DNA of 63,307 nt from contig CAYRRP010000004.1 of the NCBI GenBank assembly GCA_964426735.1, positions 25,142 to 88,448 on the forward strand, given 5' to 3'. Position 1 is the stretch's first letter, and the number at the start of each line of letters is the position of its first letter. A model generated the notes under the pieces. That model was not told the origin of the DNA and did not search any database. It worked only from the letters and a program-made list of their open reading frames with translations. This document shows, piece after piece, positions 3,922 to 63,307 of this stretch. Origin of the DNA: an uncultured Candidatus Saccharibacteria bacterium. Its GTDB lineage: Bacteria; Patescibacteriota; Minisyncoccia; Phycocordibacterales; DATDWN01. Position numbers and translations under genes: made by a program.

Positions 3922-4602
3922 ATGGAAGGGGATTCAAAAAGAGGACCAAAACCAAAAAAAATTATAGATGAAACCTGGCGACCTGATTTGGCTTACGCTA
4001 TCGGACTACTTGCATCTGATGGGTGTTTGTCGAGTGATGGTTTGCTGATTGATTTAACCTCAAACGAAAGAGAGCAATTAGAAAATTATTCCAAATGTCT
4101 CGGTGTTAATTTTACAATAGGGGAGAAAAAAGCTAACCATGGTATTAAGTATTTAAGGGTTCAATTTAAAAATCGTATTTTCTATAACTTTCTATTATCA
4201 ATCGGACTGACAAGAAAAAAATCTTTAACTCTCAATAAACTTGCTATACCAGATAAATACTTTTTTGATTTTTTAAGAGGACTTTTTGATGGGGATGGTT
4301 GTAGTTATAGTTACTGGGATCCTCGATGGAAATCAAGTTTTATGTTTTATGTTGGTTTTACATCTGGAAGTAAAGATTTTATTTACTGGATTCGACAAGA
4401 AATAAAAAACAAGATAGGAATAAATGGGCATATTACAAAGTCAAAAAGAAAAAATCCTTGTTATCAAATTAAATATGCAAAAAATGAAGCTATTAAATTG
4501 ATCCAACAAATGTATAAAAACAATAAATGTGTTTGCTTGAGTAGGAAAAGGTTGAAAATTAATGAATCTTTAGGTACTATAGGCGTACCTCTAATTGGTT
4601 AA
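3922..4602 (+). CDS. Free-standing double-motif LAGLIDADG homing endonuclease
   Basis: Two LAGLIDADG motifs are present: LAYAIGLLASDGCL and FLRGLFDGDGC. Confidence 0.85.
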   Translation: MEGDSKRGPKPKKIIDETWRPDLAYAIGLLASDGCLSSDGLLIDLTSNEREQLENYSKCLGVNFTIGEKKANHGIKYLRVQFKNRIFYNFLLSIGLTRKKSLTLNKLAIPDKYFFDFLRGLFDGDGCSYSYWDPRWKSSFMFYVGFTSGSKDFIYWIRQEIKNKIGINGHITKSKRKNPCYQIKYAKNEAIKLIQQMYKNNKCVCLSRKRLKINESLGTIGVPLIG

Positions 4603-24652: not shown

Positions 24653-24692
24653 TACATAGGGGTACCCTATGTACATAGGGTACCCCTATGTA
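24653..24692. repeat. REP palindrome pair (back-to-back, opposite orientations)
   Basis: TACATAGGGGTACCCTATGTA (24653-24673) and TACATAGGGTACCCCTATGTA (24672-24692). The same motif flanks the RAYT gene at 49.6-50.5 kb. Confidence 0.85.
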
Positions 24693-24740
24693 TTTGCTTT
24701 CTTTATAAAAACTACTGAAAATGATAGTATTGGCGTATAT

Positions 24741-27700
24741 ATGGCAGAAGATAAAGATGTAAAGCTAAAAAGTGAGACCGCACAACGAGAAGAGAGTATT
24801 CTCGATTTTTGGCAAAAAGAAAAAATATTTGAAAAGACCCTCGCAAAGGAATCTCCAAAAGGGGAGTTTGTGTTCTATGAGGGTCCACCGACTGCAAATG
24901 CAAAGCCCGCACTGCATCATCTCGAAGCACGCGCATTTAAAGATGTAATACCGCGTTTTAAAACAATGCATGGTTTTCATGTGCGACGTAAAGGAGGATG
25001 GGATACTCATGGTCTTCCGGTGGAACTTCAGATAGAAAAAAAGCTCGGACTTCAATCTAAAAAAGATATTGAAAGCTATGGTATCGAAGCATTTAATAAA
25101 GAGTGTAAGGATAGTGTATTTGAATATATCGGAGAGTGGGAAAAATTTACTGATCGTATTGGATACTGGGTAGACAAAAAGAATGCGTATTTTACGTTCA
25201 ATCCAAGTTACATGGAGTCGGTGTGGAATATTGTCAAAACAGTTGATGAGAAAAAACTTTTGTACAAAGACTACAAGGTGGTGCCGTGGTGTCCTCGTTG
25301 TGGTACTGGTCTTTCGTCACACGAGCTCGCGCAAGGGTATGAAGATGTGAAGGATCTTTCGGTGTATGTGAAATTTCATTTAAAATCGGGACAGACATTT
25401 GGAGGAGATAGAATTACTAAAGATTCTGCTTATATTGTTGCTTGGACTACAACCCCGTGGACATTACCAGGGAATGTTGGTTTGGCTGTAGGGAAAGATA
25501 TTAAATATACAGCATTGAGAGTGGGTGGTATCTCAGAACTATTGATAGTTGCTAGTGAGAGAATTTTAGATTTGTTTAAAGACCAAAAGATTGAAATAGT
25601 TCATGAGGGTATTTTTGGTTCAGATCTTATTGGTCTTTCATACGAACCGCTATTCCCATATCTTGCGGACAAATTTACTGATAAAAATCCAGAAGCGTTT
25701 CAAAAAGCATACAAAGTATATGCAGGGGATTTTGTAACTACAGAAGATGGTACGGGTATTGTGCACACTGCAGTGATGTACGGACAAGAAGATTTTGATT
25801 TAGGTACAGAGGTTGGTTTGCCAAAATTCCATCTTGTAAATCCAGACGGACATTTTCTCGACGGTATGGATTTTCTTTCAGGGCGCTTTGTAAAAGAAAA
25901 AAGTCCTGAAGGAAAGCCAACCTTGGATGTGGATATCATCAACTATCTCAAGGAACACAATCTATTTTTTGCTCAAGAAAATTACAAACACTCATATCCA
26001 CATTGTTGGCGATGTAAAACTCCACTTATATATTATGCGCGAGATTCGTGGTACATCCGTATGTCGTCTCTCCGAAAAGAACTGATGGCAGAAAATGAAG
26101 GTGTTCGTTGGGAGCCAAAACATATCAAAGAGGGTCGCTTCGGTGAGTGGCTTCGTGAGATCAAAGATTGGGCTATTTCTCGTGAGCGATACTGGGGGAC
26201 TCCGCTTCCTGTATGGACTGATCCAGAAGGGAATTATCGAGTGGTAGGGAGTGTCAATGAACTCAGAAATCTCACTCAGAAATCTGGTAATACATACACT
26301 GTCATGCGTCATGGGCAGGCGGAAAATAATACTCGTGGTATTGCAAGTACAAAAAAAGACAATCCACACCATTTGACTGACCTCGGAAAAGAACAAGTGA
26401 GAGTCTCTATAGAAGATGTTCGCGGTAGAAATATAACAAAGATTATCGCTTCACCATTTGTTCGAACACGAGAGACTGCGGAAATGGTGGCAGAAGCACT
26501 TGGTATTGCAAAAGATGTAATCATATATGATGAACGACTTGGTGAACACAATGTTGGAATATTTGATGGACAATCGATAGAAGCCTATCGTCAGTTTTGT
26601 GTAGATAATGATTATTATACCGGCAGGCCAGAAGGTGGAGAGACGGTAGGTGAAATGAAAAACCGTGTCGGAGATTTTCTCTATGAAATCGAACAGAAAT
26701 ATCAAAATGAAAATATTTTAATTGTTACTCATGAAGATCCGGCATGGATGCTTTTTGCGGTTGCTGCAGGATGTAATCAAGAAGAGACACTCAAACTCGA
26801 TCCTTCAGGATGTGAATTTATAAAAAACGCTGAGGTGCGAGTACTTAATTTTATCCCACTGCCTCATAACAGAAACTTTGAGCTTGATTTGCATCGACCG
26901 CACATCGATAATGCAATGCTTTGTAATGAAAAAGGTCAGCCACTTACTCGTGTGAAAGAAGTGATGGATGTGTGGTTTGACTCAGGTGCTATGCCGTTTG
27001 CTCAGGTCAACTATCCATTTTTAGAAGAGGGGTTGTTATATCCTGCGGATTTTATTTCTGAAGCAATTGACCAGACTCGCGGATGGTTTTATACCCTCCA
27101 TGCGATTGGAGTACTAATGGGTAAAGGTAAAGCATATAAAAATGTGATCTGCCTTGGACATATTCTCGATGCTGAGGGGAAGAAGATGTCTAAATCGATT
27201 GGAAATATTGTTAATCCAAATGAGATGATGGATCTCTATGGTGTCGATGCACTTCGTTTGTGGATGTACAGTGTAAACCAACCAGGGGATTCGAAAAACT
27301 TTGATCCATCAACAGTAGATGAGATTGTTAAAAAAGTTTTCAATCCAACTCGAAATATTCTTGCTTTTTATGAGCTTTATGCTGATGAAGATACAAAAGC
27401 ATTTACAGGAAAATCAAATCATGTTCTTGACCAGTGGATAATGAGTCGTCTCAACGAAGTAATCAGAGAGGGTACTCAATCACTCGAAAACTATCAGGTA
27501 TTTGAGTCTGCCCGCTTAATTCGTGATTTTGTCAATGATTTCTCGACGTGGTATGTACGACGCTCACGAGACAGATTTAAATCCGAAAACAAAAAAGAAA
27601 AAAATGAAGCGCTTGCAACAACTCGCTTTGTACTACAAGAACTCGTAAAATACATGGCTCCGTTTACTCCATTTTTTGCTGAAGATGTATATCGTACGCT

Positions 27701-28277
27701 TCGTCTCGATATTGATCCTGAAAGTGTTCATCTTTCCATGTGGCCACAAGGAGGTGAAGTTAATGAAAAACTTATAGCTGATATGCAAAATGTTCGAGAG
27801 ACGGTGACTCGAGTGCTTGAACTTCGTTCAAAAGCAAATATAAAAGTAAGACAACCACTTGTGTCTTTGGTGGTGAAAGAAGAGTTTGGAGAAGAGCTTC
27901 GTGCAATTATTGCTGATGAGGTGAATGTAAAAGAAGTTGCCTCGGATGCAACTATGGCAGGAGAACTCGAGCTTGATACAACACTGACTCCGGACTTGAT
28001 TGAGGAAGGAATTGCGCGAGATGTAATTCGTGCTATTCAAGATGCTCGTAAAAAAGAAAATCTAACACCGAGTCAGACCGTTACACTTTCTATATCAGGA
28101 ATCGGAACAGAATTTTTGAATCGATGGGGTGAGATGATACAAAAACCTACAGGAGTGAAAAGTATTGAGGTTGTAGATGCACAAGGGGTTCATAAGCTCA
28201 CTCTCGATAACCTCTCGATTTCATTTTCTTTAGAACTTCAAAATCTGAGTGAAGTTCTAGGCGGACAAGAAAAATAA
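24741..28277 (+). CDS. ileS: Isoleucine--tRNA ligase carrying an inserted histidine-phosphatase domain
   Basis: PPTANAKPALHHL (HIGH region), the editing domain WTTTPWTLPGN, ISRERYWGTPLPVW, and KMSKS (KKMSKSIGN). The ATG at 24741 is preferred, since the upstream 24 codons are REP sequence. Confidence 0.9.
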   Translation: MAEDKDVKLKSETAQREESILDFWQKEKIFEKTLAKESPKGEFVFYEGPPTANAKPALHHLEARAFKDVIPRFKTMHGFHVRRKGGWDTHGLPVELQIEKKLGLQSKKDIESYGIEAFNKECKDSVFEYIGEWEKFTDRIGYWVDKKNAYFTFNPSYMESVWNIVKTVDEKKLLYKDYKVVPWCPRCGTGLSSHELAQGYEDVKDLSVYVKFHLKSGQTFGGDRITKDSAYIVAWTTTPWTLPGNVGLAVGKDIKYTALRVGGISELLIVASERILDLFKDQKIEIVHEGIFGSDLIGLSYEPLFPYLADKFTDKNPEAFQKAYKVYAGDFVTTEDGTGIVHTAVMYGQEDFDLGTEVGLPKFHLVNPDGHFLDGMDFLSGRFVKEKSPEGKPTLDVDIINYLKEHNLFFAQENYKHSYPHCWRCKTPLIYYARDSWYIRMSSLRKELMAENEGVRWEPKHIKEGRFGEWLREIKDWAISRERYWGTPLPVWTDPEGNYRVVGSVNELRNLTQKSGNTYTVMRHGQAENNTRGIASTKKDNPHHLTDLGKEQVRVSIEDVRGRNITKIIASPFVRTRETAEMVAEALGIAKDVIIYDERLGEHNVGIFDGQSIEAYRQFCVDNDYYTGRPEGGETVGEMKNRVGDFLYEIEQKYQNENILIVTHEDPAWMLFAVAAGCNQEETLKLDPSGCEFIKNAEVRVLNFIPLPHNRNFELDLHRPHIDNAMLCNEKGQPLTRVKEVMDVWFDSGAMPFAQVNYPFLEEGLLYPADFISEAIDQTRGWFYTLHAIGVLMGKGKAYKNVICLGHILDAEGKKMSKSIGNIVNPNEMMDLYGVDALRLWMYSVNQPGDSKNFDPSTVDEIVKKVFNPTRNILAFYELYADEDTKAFTGKSNHVLDQWIMSRLNEVIREGTQSLENYQVFESARLIRDFVNDFSTWYVRRSRDRFKSENKKEKNEALATTRFVLQELVKYMAPFTPFFAEDVYRTLRLDIDPESVHLSMWPQGGEVNEKLIADMQNVRETVTRVLELRSKANIKVRQPLVSLVVKEEFGEELRAIIADEVNVKEVASDATMAGELELDTTLTPDLIEEGIARDVIRAIQDARKKENLTPSQTVTLSISGIGTEFLNRWGEMIQKPTGVKSIEVVDAQGVHKLTLDNLSISFSLELQNLSEVLGGQEK
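26280..26870 (+). other. Histidine phosphatase (phosphoglycerate-mutase-like) domain inserted in IleS
   Basis: TVMRHGQAENN (RHG motif), LTDLGKEQ, ASPFVRTRETA, ERLGEHNVGIFDG, LIVTHEDP. It lies between ..VGSVNELRNL and ..LDLHRPHID of the IleS body. Confidence 0.75.
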
Positions 28278-58818: not shown

Positions 58819-59508
58819 ATGATCTTTCAATCATGGGGAGGGGTACTAGAAAATTCCTTTCAGACTTTGTGGGCGGGTGTTTTATTGTTTATTCCAAACC
58901 TTATCGTCGCGCTTGTTATTCTTGCACTTGGGTGGATGATTGGTGTACTTGTTGGACATGGGATTACAAAATTTTTGGATGTACTTCGATTTGACGAAGC
59001 TCTTAAAAAAACCGGTTTTGAGAATGTGGTAAGACGTGCAGGTCTTGAGCTTCACGCATCTGCATTTGTCGGATGGCTTTTCAAAGCAGCAATTATTATT
59101 ATCTTTTTGATTGCAGCTTTTGATGTGCTTGGTCTTGTGCAGGTCACTCAGTTTTTGAGTCAGGTCGTACTCGGGTATCTTCCACAGCTTATTGTAGCAG
59201 TACTTATTTTGCTTGTTGGAGTGGTGGTTGGAGATGCATTAGAAAAAGTAGTAGTAGCGTCTTCACGAACAGCAGGACTCACTTCATCAGGAATGTTGGG
59301 TAAGGTATCAAAATGGGCAGTATGGATTTTTGCAATTCTCGTAGCTCTTTCTCAGATGGGTATCGCAGGAGCATTTATCCAGACACTCTTTACTGGTCTT
59401 GTGGTAGCGGTATCGCTTGCACTCGGTCTTGCGTTTGGTCTTGGAGGTCAGGAGGCAGCAGCAGATGCTATACGAAAGGTGAGAGAGGAGATCAAGGAAA
59501 AGCGGTAA
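58819..59508 (+). CDS. Conserved TM-helix-repeat membrane protein (MscS-associated TM_helix type)
   Basis: Repeated units of the form LP.LI.A..IL..G...G. Confidence 0.55.
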   Translation: MIFQSWGGVLENSFQTLWAGVLLFIPNLIVALVILALGWMIGVLVGHGITKFLDVLRFDEALKKTGFENVVRRAGLELHASAFVGWLFKAAIIIIFLIAAFDVLGLVQVTQFLSQVVLGYLPQLIVAVLILLVGVVVGDALEKVVVASSRTAGLTSSGMLGKVSKWAVWIFAILVALSQMGIAGAFIQTLFTGLVVAVSLALGLAFGLGGQEAAADAIRKVREEIKEKR

Positions 59509-59608
59509 TAGTATAGATAGTTGGTTATACAAAAAACACCCTAAAAAGGGTGTTTTTTGTACCTTTCTCGTGAGCGATAAAACCCTTTAAAAATCAGTGC
59601 AAAAGTCT

Positions 59609-59637
59609 GTTGACAGGACTTTAAGCTTCGTATATAC
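59609..59637 (+). promoter_or_regulatory. Near-consensus sigma70 promoter for the 23S rRNA gene
   Basis: TTGACA (59609-59614), exactly 17 nt, TATACT (59632-59637). It lies downstream of the terminator at 59531-59558. Confidence 0.65.
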
Positions 59638-60182
59638 TAGCTTCATTCGGTATGAAAAAAACATTGAATCTAAAAAGCGGCGTTTAGGAAACATGCTTAA
59701 TTGAATGTTGCCCAAATTCCGCTCTAAGCGGATTTTTTGTTCCACAGATTGACTCGATATTTGACAACTAAATCCCGCCACTTACTACTGACCAATGATG
59801 GGTCTTTTCGGGTGAGTAGGCGGACCAAATATTTTGTTACCTAAGATCAATAGATGTTAGATAACAGAGTATGAATGTAAAAATATAATTGTGGTTTTTA
59901 AATTTCCTAATGGGAAATTTAAGAGCATATGGTGGATGCCTAGACTCTAAAAGGCGATGAAAGACGCGGCATGGTGGCGATACGTTTCGGGGAGGTACCT
60001 AGCAACCTTTGATCCGGAAATCTCTGAATGGGGGAACCCAACAGCTTTTGCTGTTACTCTGCAAATTATGCAGAGCGCACACCCAGGGAAGTAAAACATT
60101 CCAGTACCTGGAGGAAAAGAAAACAATGTTCGTAAGAACGATATTTCGTTAGTAGCGGCGAGCGAACACGAAAGAGCCCAAA

Positions 60183-60394
60183 CCGATGCATCACAGTGTG
60201 TAAAATATTTTTGTTTTGAATGGTCCGAGTGAGGAATACCTGTTATGAAAAGGGAGAAGGCCATCCCTGTGTAATGACAAAGCTCCTGCAGAGCTGGTGT
60301 TCCTCGCTCGGTCCACGGAAGTTCTTTCTGTGGCCGATTTTAAAATCGGTTTACCATTCAGTACGAAAATATTTTATATAGCGTGATGCATCGG
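60183..60394 (+). other. 23S insertion 1: helix-9 intervening sequence (~188 nt inside a 12-bp stem)
   Basis: CCGATGCATCAC (60183-60194) pairs with GTGATGCATCGG (60383-60394), between the conserved GCCCAAA and GGTTGTAAGG. The interior has nested stems. Confidence 0.8.
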
Positions 60395-60698: not shown

Positions 60699-60827
60699 GG
60701 GGGCATCACATGGAATGTGATGCAGTTTTTAGTCATTAGTCATAAGTCAACAGTAGATGCAAATGCATTTTACTGATGACTGTTAACTGTGAACTATTGA
60801 CTGCATCGCGCTTCGCGTGATGCTTCC
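60699..60827 (+). other. 23S insertion 2: helix-25 intervening sequence carrying repeat element rIE copy 1
   Basis: Inserted between CAAGGAGTCGGAGC and GTCACGGCGTGCC. The segment 60704-60822 is about 85% identical to 62413-62532. Confidence 0.8.
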
Positions 60828-61467
60828 GTCACGGCGTGCCTATTGAAGAATGAGCCAACGAGTTGATGGATGCAGCAAGGCTAAGCCCTTTACCGGGCGG
60901 AGTCGTAGGGAAACCGAGTGTGAATAGCGCGTTAAGTTGTATGCATCAGACCCGAAGCCAGAGCGAGCTTACCATGAGCAGGGTGAACTTTGTCGAAAGA
61001 TGAAGGGAGGCCCGAACAGTTTAGCCGTGCAATACTATCTGATGACTTGTGGTAAGAAGTGAAAAGCTAATCGAGCCTGGTAATAGCTGGTTCTCTCCGA
61101 AATAGCTTTTGGGCTAGCGTTAGATGATCCCTTCCGGGGTAGAGCACTGGAAGGACTCGACAGGGAGAAATCTCGCGAGTCCTATCAAACTCCGAATACG
61201 GAAGATTACAGTCTAGCAGTTAGACGGCGGGGGCTAAGCTCCGTACGTCAAAAGGGAAACAGCCCTGATCTCTATTTAAGGTCCCTAAATCTATGTTAAG
61301 TACACGTAAGGTGGTGGATTTTCTCAGACACTGAGGAGGTTGGCTTAGAAGCAGCCATCCTTTAAAGAAAGCGTAACAGCTCACTCAGTAAGAGAATCTG
61401 CGCCGCAAATAATCGGGGTTAAACATGGTACCGAAACTGAGGGTTTGTAGACTTCATCAAGAAAAAA

Positions 61468-61579
61468 TTCCAAAATTGGCGAATTTCATCTTTTTGATTT
61501 TTAAAATACTCGTCACCGTACGTCAGTACGGCTTCTCGTATTTTAAAAATCAAAAAGCGAACTTCATCCAATTTTGAAA
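61468..61579 (+). repeat. Dispersed ~115-nt hairpin repeat, copy G, inside the 23S H45 insertion
   Basis: TTCCAAAATTGG-CGAATTTCAT..TCGTCACCGTACGTCAGTACGGCTTCTC..CGAACTTCATCCAATTTTGAAA. Confidence 0.8.
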
Positions 61580-61602
61580 TTTTATAAAATGTTTTTTAAT
61601 GC

Positions 61603-61677
61603 GCATCGGTCGTCTAATGGTTAGGACATCGGACTCTTAATCCGAAAATTGGGGTTCGAGTCCCTGCTGATGCGCCA
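61603..61677 (+). tRNA. tRNA-Lys (anticodon CTT), CCA encoded, nested in the 23S insertion
   Basis: Acceptor GCATCGG/CTGATGC (one G-U pair), U8, 3-bp D stem GTC/GAC, anticodon stem TCGGA/TCCGA with loop CTCTTAA, T arm TGGGG-TTCGAGT-CCCTG, discriminator G, CCA. Confidence 0.8.
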
Positions 61678-61722
61678 CTCCAATTTTTGGAGTGAATGTT
61701 CTTTAATTTGTGTCCAAAATGT

Positions 61723-61799
61723 GGACGTGTAGCTCAGCCTGGTAGAGCGGTGCGCTGAAAACGCATATGTCGGGGGTTCGATTCCCTCCACGTCCACCA
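61723..61799 (+). tRNA. tRNA-Phe (anticodon GAA), CCA encoded, nested in the 23S insertion
   Basis: Acceptor GGACGTG/CACGTCC, D arm TAGCTCAGCCTGGTAGAGC, anticodon loop CTGAAAA, T arm GGGGG-TTCGATT-CCCTC, ACCA. Confidence 0.88.
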
Positions 61800-62410
61800 C
61801 TCTCTTTCAGAGAGTGGTACACAAATTTTTTCTTTCGATTTTTTAAAATCGAATTCTTGATGAAGTCTACAAGCGGTAGGAGAGTATTCGTATCTGCGCT
61901 GAAGCCAAAGGGGTGACCCATGGTGGAGCGATGCGAAGTAAGAATGTTGGCACAAGTAACCACAATGCAGGTGAAATCCCTGCACGCCGAAAGACTAAGG
62001 TTTCCTGTTCAATGTTAATCAGAGCAGGGTTAGTCGGGCCTAAGGAAATGGAGAGATCCGCATCCGATGGACATAGGGTTAATATTCCCTAACTTTTGTG
62101 TAATGCGATGGAAGGACGGAGTGCTGTATATAGGGCTCATTATTGGATTTGAGTCACTGCCGTGAGATTGTGTTCCAGGTAAATCCGGACACTCACTTAA
62201 ATGTGGAATTCGAGCGGTTGCGAAACCTTGAGATTCGTCAAGAGGGATCCTATAAAGCGCGCTTCCAAGAAAAGTTTCTAAGCTTAAGTACACAAGAACC
62301 GTACCGTAAACCGACACAGGTAGTCAGGTCGAGTAGACCAAGGCGAACGAGTGAGAGATCCCCAAGGAACTCGGCAAAAAAGCAGCCGTAACTTCGGAAT
62401 AAGGCTTGCC

Positions 62411-62535
62411 CCCATCACATGGAATGTGATGGTGGTCATAAGTAGACAGTCATAAGTCAACAGAAAATGCATATGCATTTTACTAATGACTATTGACTGT
62501 GAACTGTTGACTTCATCGCGCTTCGCGTGATGGGG
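62411..62535 (+). other. 23S insertion 4: helix-63 intervening sequence carrying repeat element rIE copy 2
   Basis: Inserted between CGGAATAAGGCTTG and CGCAGCTAAAG..GGCAACTGTTTATCAAAAACACAG. The closing stem is CCCCCATCAC / GTGATGGGGG. Confidence 0.8.
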
Positions 62536-62688: not shown

Positions 62689-62723
<35 letters not shown>

Positions 62724-62967
62724 TGTGCGAACGAATCATATCGTGCGCACAAGGACTGGGACTGTTGTAGTTCTGTTGATACAATAAAATGTTCAATTTT
62801 ATTTATTGGCATTTTGATAAACTAACTAAACAATAATCATTACATTTCTAGCTACCTATCATGCCGTAATGCATGAATAGTCCAACGTGATTGACGAGAG
62901 ACCAACGTCACGGACCCGAAACTTGCAAAGTTGGGTTAAGAGAGAGTCCAACGGAGAGGAATCGTTG
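62724..62967 (+). other. 23S insertion 5: candidate ORF-less group I intron at about E. coli position 1931
   Basis: It interrupts GGTCCTAAGGT | AGCGAAATTCC. The upstream exon ends in T(U) and the insert ends in G. It contains an AAGAGAGAGTCC (J8/7-P7-like) segment and a duplicated AGTCCAACG. No ORF is present. Confidence 0.45.
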
Positions 62968-63307
62968 AGCGAAATTCCTTGTCGGGTAAGTTCCGACGCG
63001 CACGAATGGTGTAATGACTGGAAAACTGTCTCGGGGATTTGCTCGGTGAAAATACAATACCGGTGAAGATGCCGGTTACCTGCAGTTAGACGAAAAGACC
63101 CCAGGAGCTTTACTGCATCTTGATATTGAGAATATGACTTGCATGCGTAGCATAGTGGTGAGGATTTGAAGGGCACTTCCGGGTAGCCTGGATCCGTCAG
63201 TGAAATAGCCATCTTGTTTGTTATATTTTCTAACCTCGGCGGAAAAAACGACGAGAGACAGTGTCTGGTGGGCAGTTTTAGTGGGGCGCTATCCTCCTAA
63301 AAAGTAA

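Follow-up and report, generated by a model that had tools for sequence, protein, structure and literature searches.

A compact insert family at site 1931 of bacterial 23S rRNA that resembles the 3′ half of a group I intron and pairs with both exons

What kind of element is a 244-nucleotide (nt) insert that splits a 23S ribosomal RNA (rRNA) gene at the junction of helices 69 and 71 (H69 and H71), and how would it be removed? The question is raised by a 63,307-nt stretch of DNA, hereafter the window, from an uncultured Candidatus Saccharibacteria bacterium (GenBank assembly GCA_964426735.1, contig CAYRRP010000004.1, positions 25,142 to 88,448 of the forward strand). A 23S rRNA gene starts at position 59909 of the window and continues past its end, and the insert occupies 62724-62967, at Escherichia coli site 1931 of the large subunit (L1931). 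It is a member of a family found at this one site, whose helices and pairings with both flanking exons vary in a compensatory manner. The best explanation, held with moderate confidence from comparison of sequences, is that the insert represents a reduced intron, derived from group I, within the 23S precursor, and that it would be removed by group I-type chemistry. That it would splice itself without protein is held with less confidence.

An insert family at site 1931

The insert separates GGUCCUAAGGU, whose last base is 62723, from AGCGAAAUUCC, which restarts at 62968. Read in order, the junctions are ...AACGGUCCUAAGGU (ending at 62723), UGUGCG...CGUUG (ending at 62967) and AGCGAAAUUCCUUGUCGGG. 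A covariance model of bacterial large-subunit (LSU) rRNA places an insert of ~247 nt between model positions 1953 and 1955 and aligns cleanly across the site, as ...CGUAACUAUAACGGUCCUA, the ~247-nt insert, and G--AGCGAAAUUCCUUGUCGGGUAAGUUCCGAC. The boundaries are unambiguous, as a slide of even one base disrupts the conserved exon string. The base before the insert, at the end of the 5′ exon, is U and the last base of the insert is G, whilst the longest reading frame within it has at most 35 codons and there is no intron-encoded protein. An initial annotation, made from the letters of the window, had described an insert of this length and position that lacks an open reading frame (ORF), follows a U and ends in G; both the direct reading of the junctions and the LSU model confirm the insert, and the two terminal bases are as it stated. 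Among the matches listed from named genomes, the 23S gene nearest to that of the window is at locus L060, with 79% identity, and those from other phyla reach at most 73% (numbers with L denote loci of this study). By this measure the bacterium most likely belongs to the candidate phyla radiation (CPR, Patescibacteria).

Inserts at this site are common in bacteria. A scan of one genome per prokaryotic species, with a query composed of 'G' followed by the 3′ exon, recovered G-ending inserts at 23S site 1931 in at least 120 species (L001-L120) from many phyla, including Acidobacteriota, Actinomycetota, Proteobacteria, Chloroflexota and Nitrospirota. Bacterial L1931 inserts are thus far more numerous than the handful of the older literature. 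Both exon anchors were present at 91 of 120 loci among the matches listed, L022 and L060 not being counted, and most of these 91 inserts are canonical group I introns of 240-770 nt; they include canonical group I introns without an ORF of only 240-330 nt (e.g. L002, L041 and L046). Full-length homologues of the window insert were found, among the matches listed, at two loci, L022 in a Candidatus Nomurabacteria genome (214 nt) and L060 in a Candidatus Paceibacterota genome (254 nt).

Metagenomes were then scanned with an internal motif common to the window insert, L022 and L060, which contains no exon sequence. This pattern fixed 23 bases of the paired element P7 loop and of the joining segment J8/7 with the 3′ strand of P7 (P7′), namely ACGAGAGACCAnCGUCA and AGAGUCC, and L022 and L060 are the sole members found free of that constraint. 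The scan returned 94 contigs. Complete copies numbered 92 (64 distinct, 187-282 nt), every one of them located exactly at site 1931; two are those of the CPR genomes L022 and L060 and the remainder lie on metagenome contigs. Of the remaining metagenome matches, one was chance-like and three were clipped by contig ends. One family at one site in 92 independent contigs means that the insert is not a chance feature. The motif had no matches in viral contigs. As far as the members recovered show, the family is limited to site 1931 and to CPR bacteria related to Paceibacterota/Nomurabacteria. No description of its architecture was found in the literature, where a survey of CPR inserts, papers on L1931 and lichen introns surfaced, although coverage was incomplete and an earlier description is possible. 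The family is widespread and apparently undescribed.

Helices and exon pairings

Sixty-three distinct members were aligned with 30 nt of exon on either side (alignment A1), and base pairs were counted for a structure that includes pseudoknots; all parts of the intron and exons named below lie on the plus strand. Standard pairs occupy 94.4% of the cells, against 37-43% when the partners are slid by 1-3 columns. Changes on both sides occur at 36 pairs, and the observed values were reached by none of 500 shuffles. These shuffle controls overstate significance because the members are related by descent; more weight attaches to the control with slid partners and to the variety of independent pair types. 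RNAalifold, run blind, recovered the exon-intron duplex together with the hairpin H1 and the paired elements P2, P3, P8 and P9.

Two pairings join the intron to its exons. The first, of 13 base pairs (bp), links the loop and 3′ strand of H69 in the 5′ exon (CUAUAACGGUCCU, 62706-62718) to an intron segment (GGGACUGUUGUAG, 62758-62770) that adjoins the 5′ strand of a short helix, X. It is present in both the minimum free energy (MFE) fold and the RNAalifold structure, and its mean energy across the 63 members is -18.5 kcal/mol. The H69 exon is nearly invariant. Pair counts of CG:60 UA:2 and GU:39 GC:17 UA:1 occur, and elsewhere the intron partner varies only between G-C and G.U or between U-A and U.G. 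Two members with an altered H69 stem are compensated in the intron: L165 has the exon sequence AAUUGUCC with intron GGACAAU, and L162 carries a C-G to U-A change. The second pairing, of 7 bp, links the P9 loop (GAGGAAU, 62956-62962) to positions +7 to +13 of the 3′ exon (AUUCCUU, 62974-62980). It is 99% paired, with counts of AU:33/UA:29 and UA:51/CG:8, and the intron has GGUAU, GGUAC and GGAAA opposite exons that have AUACC, GUACC and UUUCC, respectively. Compensatory changes thus prove both intron-exon pairings.

Other registers were examined and rejected. The initial annotation had paired exon GGUCCU with AGGACU of the insert; this register is wrong, with mismatches in 19 of 63 members and no covariation. 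Its caveat that there is no conventional guide beside the 5′ end, and that the exon pairing is atypical, is borne out. A pairing of GGGACUGUU with GAAUAGUCC, seen in a single-sequence MFE fold, has 23-24 mismatches at two positions, and its bases belong to P2 and helix X. RNAalifold also proposed a pairing of J8/7 with the 3′ exon, which has 16 non-pairs against 0-2 for the P9-loop pairing.

The intron begins with H1, which comprises its first 28 bases (62724-62751) and covaries at 9 of its 10 pairs. Its loops are often UUCG or GNRA, and the base that follows, A62752 in the window, is A in 59 of 63 members. Helix X joins GGACU (62753-62757) to AGUCC (62879-62883) and its first pair covaries (GC:39 UA:18). 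The exon-binding segment is followed in alignment A1 by an A/U-rich linker (62771-62850), for which RNAalifold predicts no conserved helix; the window has there an extra, optional hairpin of ~45 nt (~62771-62815) that is missing from most members. A possible 3-bp contact was observed between GAU at 62816-62818 and AUU at 62890-62892, at the end of the 5′ strand of P3. Its middle pair covaries (AU:29, GC:19, GU:10, other:4), and the contact may be tertiary, may belong to an alternative pairing or may be a coincidence of phylogeny. All seven pairs of the P2 hairpin (62858-62878) have changed on both sides, and its loop is of the GNRA type, GUAA at 62866-62869 in the window and G(U/A)AA in 63 of 63 members.

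P3 (CGUGAU, 62886-62891, with GUCACG, 62907-62912) is 100% paired, with two covarying pairs, and encloses just 15 nt, which include the 5′ strand of P7 (GAGAC, 62898-62902). P8 (62913-62937) covaries at 9 of 10 pairs, and two of its adjacent C-G pairs are fixed (CG:63 and CG:58) amongst variable neighbours. GNRA loops prefer C-G pairs in their receptors, and the pattern suggests that the P2 loop docks on the two fixed pairs of P8 in a tetraloop-helix contact. P8 is followed by J8/7 (AAGAGAGA) and the 3′ strand of P7, GUCC, which together span 62938-62949 and are invariant. The family consensus of this segment is AAGAnAGA-GUCC, and the AAGA of J8/7, which lies outside the search pattern, is conserved in 62-63 of 63 members. 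P7 would pair G62898 and G62900-C62902, with A62899 bulged, with GUCC at 62946-62949. The P9 hairpin (AACG/CGUU, 62950-62953 with 62963-62966) covaries at four of four pairs and, within the region 62950-62967, is directly followed by the terminal G62967, which is G in 63 of 63 members and lies outside the metagenome pattern. Much of what the initial annotation had picked out falls into this scheme: the proposed J8/7 plus P7 strand is UUAAGAGAGAGUCC at 62938-62949, the small ACUU-GCA-AAGU hairpin is the tip of P8, and the GGAC/GUCC candidates are real but belong to two separate helices, X and P7.

A candidate internal guide, GCUACCU (62851-62857), precedes P2. It is identical in 62 of 63 members although it stands within a variable region, and it lies outside the search pattern. 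Its ACCU (62854-62857) is complementary to AGGU (62720-62723) at the end of the 5′ exon, where U62723 is the splice-site base, and both sides are invariant in the 63 members except for one C>U change that keeps a G.U pair. Its GCU faces AGC (62968-62970), a candidate P10 strand at the start of the 3′ exon (62968-62980). GCUACCU could thus form P1 and P10 in the standard P10-P1 layout. With P1 so assigned, all members have the exon duplex, P1, P2 and helix X converging on one point, separated by linkers of 1, 0, 0 and 0 nt, and this closed four-way junction lends the assignment circumstantial support.

Group I features and the fate of the insert

The 3′ half of the insert, comprising P3, the P7 strand, P8, J8/7, P7′, P9 and the terminal G, corresponds in both sequence and order to that of the canonical L1931 introns. 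The canonical string CUC-AGAGAC-UACA-CGCCAAG...P8...GAAGAUAUAGUCC-P9...G is paralleled in the family by ACG-AGAGAC-CAA-CGUCACG...P8...UAAGAGAGAGUCC-P9-G. The G-[A]-GAC/GUC arrangement of P7 is common to both, and J8/7 AAGAGAGA of the family corresponds to the canonical AAGAUAnAGUCC motif. Among the matches listed, the P7 motif CAGAGAC (searched as CAGAGAC[TC]) occurs in 74 of the 91 canonical inserts, the J8/7-P7′ motif AAGAnAnAGUCC in 58 of 91, the guide GCCUUAG, which is the partner of exon CUAAGGU, also in 58 of 91, and a guide that resembles GCUACCU, GCUAGCCUUAG, in 33 of 91. When L022 is aligned to the Rfam group I model RF00028, P3, P8, J8/7 and P9 are matched, with a score of 20.5 bits. 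On this evidence from sequence and order, the insert is group I-derived.

A mechanism of removal can be proposed in these terms. The insert would retain the guanosine-binding half of the ribozyme, consisting of the P3-P7 pseudoknot, P8, J8/7, P9 and the terminal G, together with the P2 hairpin, the GNRA loop of which probably docks against the two fixed C-G pairs of P8. It would have lost P4-P6, along with the U.G wobble that P4-P6 normally reads. The exons would be gripped by the 13-bp H69 duplex, by a 4-bp P1 and a 3-bp P10 formed on GCUACCU, and by the 7-bp pseudoknot of the P9 loop, with the four-way junction of exon duplex, P1, P2 and X clamping the 5′ exon beside the catalytic core. A free guanosine bound in P7 would first attack after U62723. 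The terminal G62967 would then occupy P7, and the 5′ exon would attack after G62967 to restore GGUCCUAAGGU-AGCGAAAUUCC. Proteins may assist in such guanosine-dependent splicing.

Several observations weigh against this reading. RF00028 did not match the window in segments of 3.8 kb, 778 nt or 291 nt, either at the gathering threshold (50 bits) or at E<=10, so that the Rfam search for which the initial annotation had called fails even for the 291-nt segment at the permissive setting; nor did the window match any other intron family of Rfam. The relatives reach 20.5 bits (L022) and 20.1 bits (L060), under the 50-bit cut-off, whereas the short canonical introns of site 1931 obtain 51-83 bits. P4-P6, a component of the active fold of known group I ribozymes, is absent. 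Only 6 nt (62892-62897) separate the 5′ strand of P3 from P7, and the alignment of L022 has 8 nt for the 89 model positions of P4-P6 and P7. No substitute for P4-P6 was found in the upstream A/U-rich region, where the sole lead is the 3-bp contact of 62816-62818 with 62890-62892. The U.G wobble is also absent, U62723 facing either A62854 (A in 63 of 63) or A62752 (A in 59 of 63). P1 and P10 never vary in the family and so have no covariation to support them; for P1, with both AGGU and ACCU invariant, covariation cannot provide a test. P7, likewise invariant, is assigned from similarity rather than covariation, and the invariance of the 23 patterned bases is partly an artefact of a search that forced ACGAGAGACCAnCGUCA and AGAGUCC. 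Finally, H1 joins the outer ends of P1 and helix X, which fits only some geometries of a four-way junction. The two main losses are at least coherent with one another, since in known introns it is J4/5 of P4-P6 that reads the wobble pair at the splice site. Of the minimal group I intron proposed by the initial annotation, the group I-derived 3′ half and the covarying helices stand, whilst P4-P6, the wobble and a match in Rfam are missing. A more specific proposal, that the family is a natural class of self-splicing ribozyme which dispenses with P4-P6 and the U.G wobble and uses its exons (the H69 four-way junction and the pseudoknot of P9 loop and 3′ exon) as structural parts, is put forward tentatively, as a serious possibility that is not the expected outcome.

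An alternative scenario is that the insert is a degenerate group I relic, no longer autocatalytic, that is excised in vivo either with a protein that replaces the lost scaffold or by an endonuclease and a ligase, the exon pairings serving to present the junctions. This is rather unlikely. The insert is indeed shortened with parts of the core lost, as in degenerate group I introns, and the elements that it lacks are required for catalysis in known group I introns. There is also a precedent that counts with the points already raised against autocatalysis: the nuclear rRNA genes of lichen fungi hold shortened 'degenerate' group I introns that are missing sequences on which catalysis depends and show no self-splicing in vitro, although they are excised in vivo (PMC8527467). 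The lichen introns belong to eukaryotic nuclear genomes, and extended exon pairing with covariation is not reported for them. Against a relic, the guanosine site (GAGAC/GUCC with the bulged A) is kept in 63 variants, as are J8/7 and the terminal G, while the helices drift, which disfavours removal by nucleases, as these features would be unnecessary for it. The intron encodes no protein, and no candidate cofactor has been identified.

A second alternative, that the insert is retained in mature 23S rRNA as an expansion segment, is improbable. In its favour is the intron of Simkania, inserted at the same site (PMC1995217), which is called 'An unspliced group I intron in 23S rRNA' in the title of Everett et al. 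1999 (as listed in PMC11270868). This title weakens the premise of the initial annotation that an unspliced insert would not be tolerated here. The 23S gene of the window also bears several further inserts. Nevertheless, the covarying pairings take up the universally conserved AAAUUCCUU as well as the loop and 3′ strand of H69, and their formation in mature rRNA would unfold functional structure. The conserved terminal G and P7/J8/7 core would have no role in a retained insert, and inserts in CPR rRNA are reported to be missing from transcripts (PMC11270868).

It is very improbable that the insert is an intervening sequence of the ribonuclease III (RNase III) type, excised with no rejoining of the ends, so that 23S would be in fragments. 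Such sequences, known from helices 25 and 45 (H25 and H45), are likewise ORF-less 23S inserts; the same gene harbours a classic example in H45 with a 17-bp stem, RNase III is retained in CPR genomes (PMC12641178), and the exon-intron duplex and helix X amount to ~18 bp of double-stranded RNA. Yet RNase III intervening sequences occupy helix tips and are closed by a terminal stem formed from their own ends, whereas the 1931 insert lies at a helix junction and its ends, rather than pairing with each other, form the separate hairpins H1 and P9. Its sole long duplex includes H69, so that cleavage would destroy the exon, and the group I hallmarks are kept. That the insert is merely decaying in a non-functional rRNA gene copy, as the clutter of five inserts in this gene might suggest, is scarcely credible when the rRNA core scores 1624 bits with every conserved stretch intact and 64 distinct variants with compensatory changes, found across many samples, place the family under selection.

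A group II intron was also considered and rejected. These introns begin with GUGYG, end in AY and have six domains, domain V among them, and at least ~400 nt, whereas the insert is 244 nt long and ends in G; taking GUGCG at 62725-62729 as the boundary leaves an extra exon base over.

Other inserts in the gene and its surroundings

The 23S gene of the window holds five inserts in all. At the H45 intervening-sequence site there is one of 425 nt (61447-61871), where the five nearest relatives have only ~22 nt. A perfect stem of 17 bp (61447-61463 with 61854-61870) encloses a long hairpin (61466-61581) and two transfer RNA (tRNA) genes, tRNA-Lys(CUU) at 61603-61677 and tRNA-Phe(GAA) at 61723-61799. 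The nesting of tRNA genes within a 23S intervening sequence looks unusual, and their processing would fragment the rRNA. In L060 (Paceibacterota), a tRNA-Gln(UUG) gene (4096-4170) also lies inside 23S, within a weak group I-like match (3951-4291), and tRNA genes in 23S inserts may be recurrent in the lineage of the window and L060. Two copies of a palindromic element of ~120 nt (60704-60818 and 62413-62532), 85% identical and in the same orientation, occupy two different 23S helices at model positions ~583 and ~1760, where relatives have 13-22 nt; the element has the look of a small mobile hairpin directed at the tips of rRNA helices. A further insert of ~198 nt (60185-60382) lies in domain I, at model position ~283, where relatives have ~70 nt.

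Many 23S genes that bear the 1931 family have a second insert ~20 nt downstream, near L1951. It stands just after GUCGGGUA of the 3′ exon in L121, L124, L126, L142, L170, L204 and L207, and the arrangement is similar in L149, L159 and L166. The short exon between the two inserts is the segment that pairs with the P9 loop.

Genes elsewhere in the window are bacterial, amongst them ileS, argS, ftsK and those of ATP-binding cassette (ABC) transporters, as befits a piece of bacterial chromosome. An organelle, which the tRNA genes within the rRNA gene might have suggested, is rejected as the source because these genes are ordinary bacterial ones. The protein of the gene beside the rRNA had no identical entry in the records searched, and a search with argS gave only short Logan contigs from SRR14271372/3. 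The region upstream of 23S (58819-59908) consists of a mechanosensitive-channel-like gene and a spacer of ~400 nt, with no 16S gene there, and the rRNA genes of this organism appear to be unlinked. The ileS ORF (24669-28277, 1202 amino acids) has a histidine-phosphatase or phosphoglycerate-mutase-like domain inserted at about residues 538-716, with IleS matches on both sides.

Related systems and significance

The canonical introns at L1931 of Thermotoga, Synechococcus and Simkania are ~650-700 nt long and contain a LAGLIDADG gene (PMC1995217). Canonical introns of this site resemble the 1931 family in the P7 strand AGAGAC, in AAGAnAnAGUCC, in the order P3′-P8-P9, in the terminal G and in a related guide, GCUA(G)CCU. 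They differ in having a full P4-P6, a 7-bp P1 (GCCUUAG) with a U.G wobble and scores of 51-83 bits with RF00028, whilst H1, helix X, the H69-binding segment and the pairing of P9 loop and 3′ exon are additions of the family. Neither the H69-binding GGGACYGUU nor the P9-loop GGAAU was found in any of the 91 other site-1931 inserts among the matches listed.

The family is about as large as the small group I introns of bacterial tRNA genes, such as those of Azoarcus (~205 nt) and Anabaena (~249 nt), which belong to subgroup IC3. These also dock a GNRA loop of P2 on P8 and have a compact P9 before the terminal G, but they retain P4-P6 and J4/5 as well as the U.G wobble, and they bind only a few bases of the exons. 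Ribozymes without P4-P6 have reportedly been engineered from the Tetrahymena intron by Ikawa, Shiraishi and Inoue in 2000, the P3-P9 half being weakly active; these artificial molecules are said to need high ionic strength or polyamines. By analogy, the 1931 family would be their natural counterpart, with exon clamps added.

Only 45% of the inserts in CPR 23S genes are called as group I, and over half go unrecognised as introns by current models (PMC11270868). The 1931 family gives one unclassified class of CPR insert a defined structure backed by covariation, and a covariance model of it would improve the annotation of rRNA in metagenomes. If splicing occurs as proposed, group I chemistry works in nature with a P3-P9 half and clamping of the exons, and the family would provide a compact (~200 nt) scaffold with long, programmable exon recognition as well as a natural system in which to dissect the contributions of P4-P6 and the wobble pair. 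Were the tentative self-splicing proposal also to hold, the minimal natural architecture of group I catalysis would be redefined, and ~27 nt of exon complementarity could permit site-specific reverse splicing into 23S. Reverse splicing would in turn account for how the family has spread although it lacks a homing endonuclease. For the organisms themselves, H69, which forms a key intersubunit bridge, stays sequestered by the intron up to the time of excision, and the intron could therefore act as a checkpoint of ribosome assembly in bacteria that have few assembly factors.

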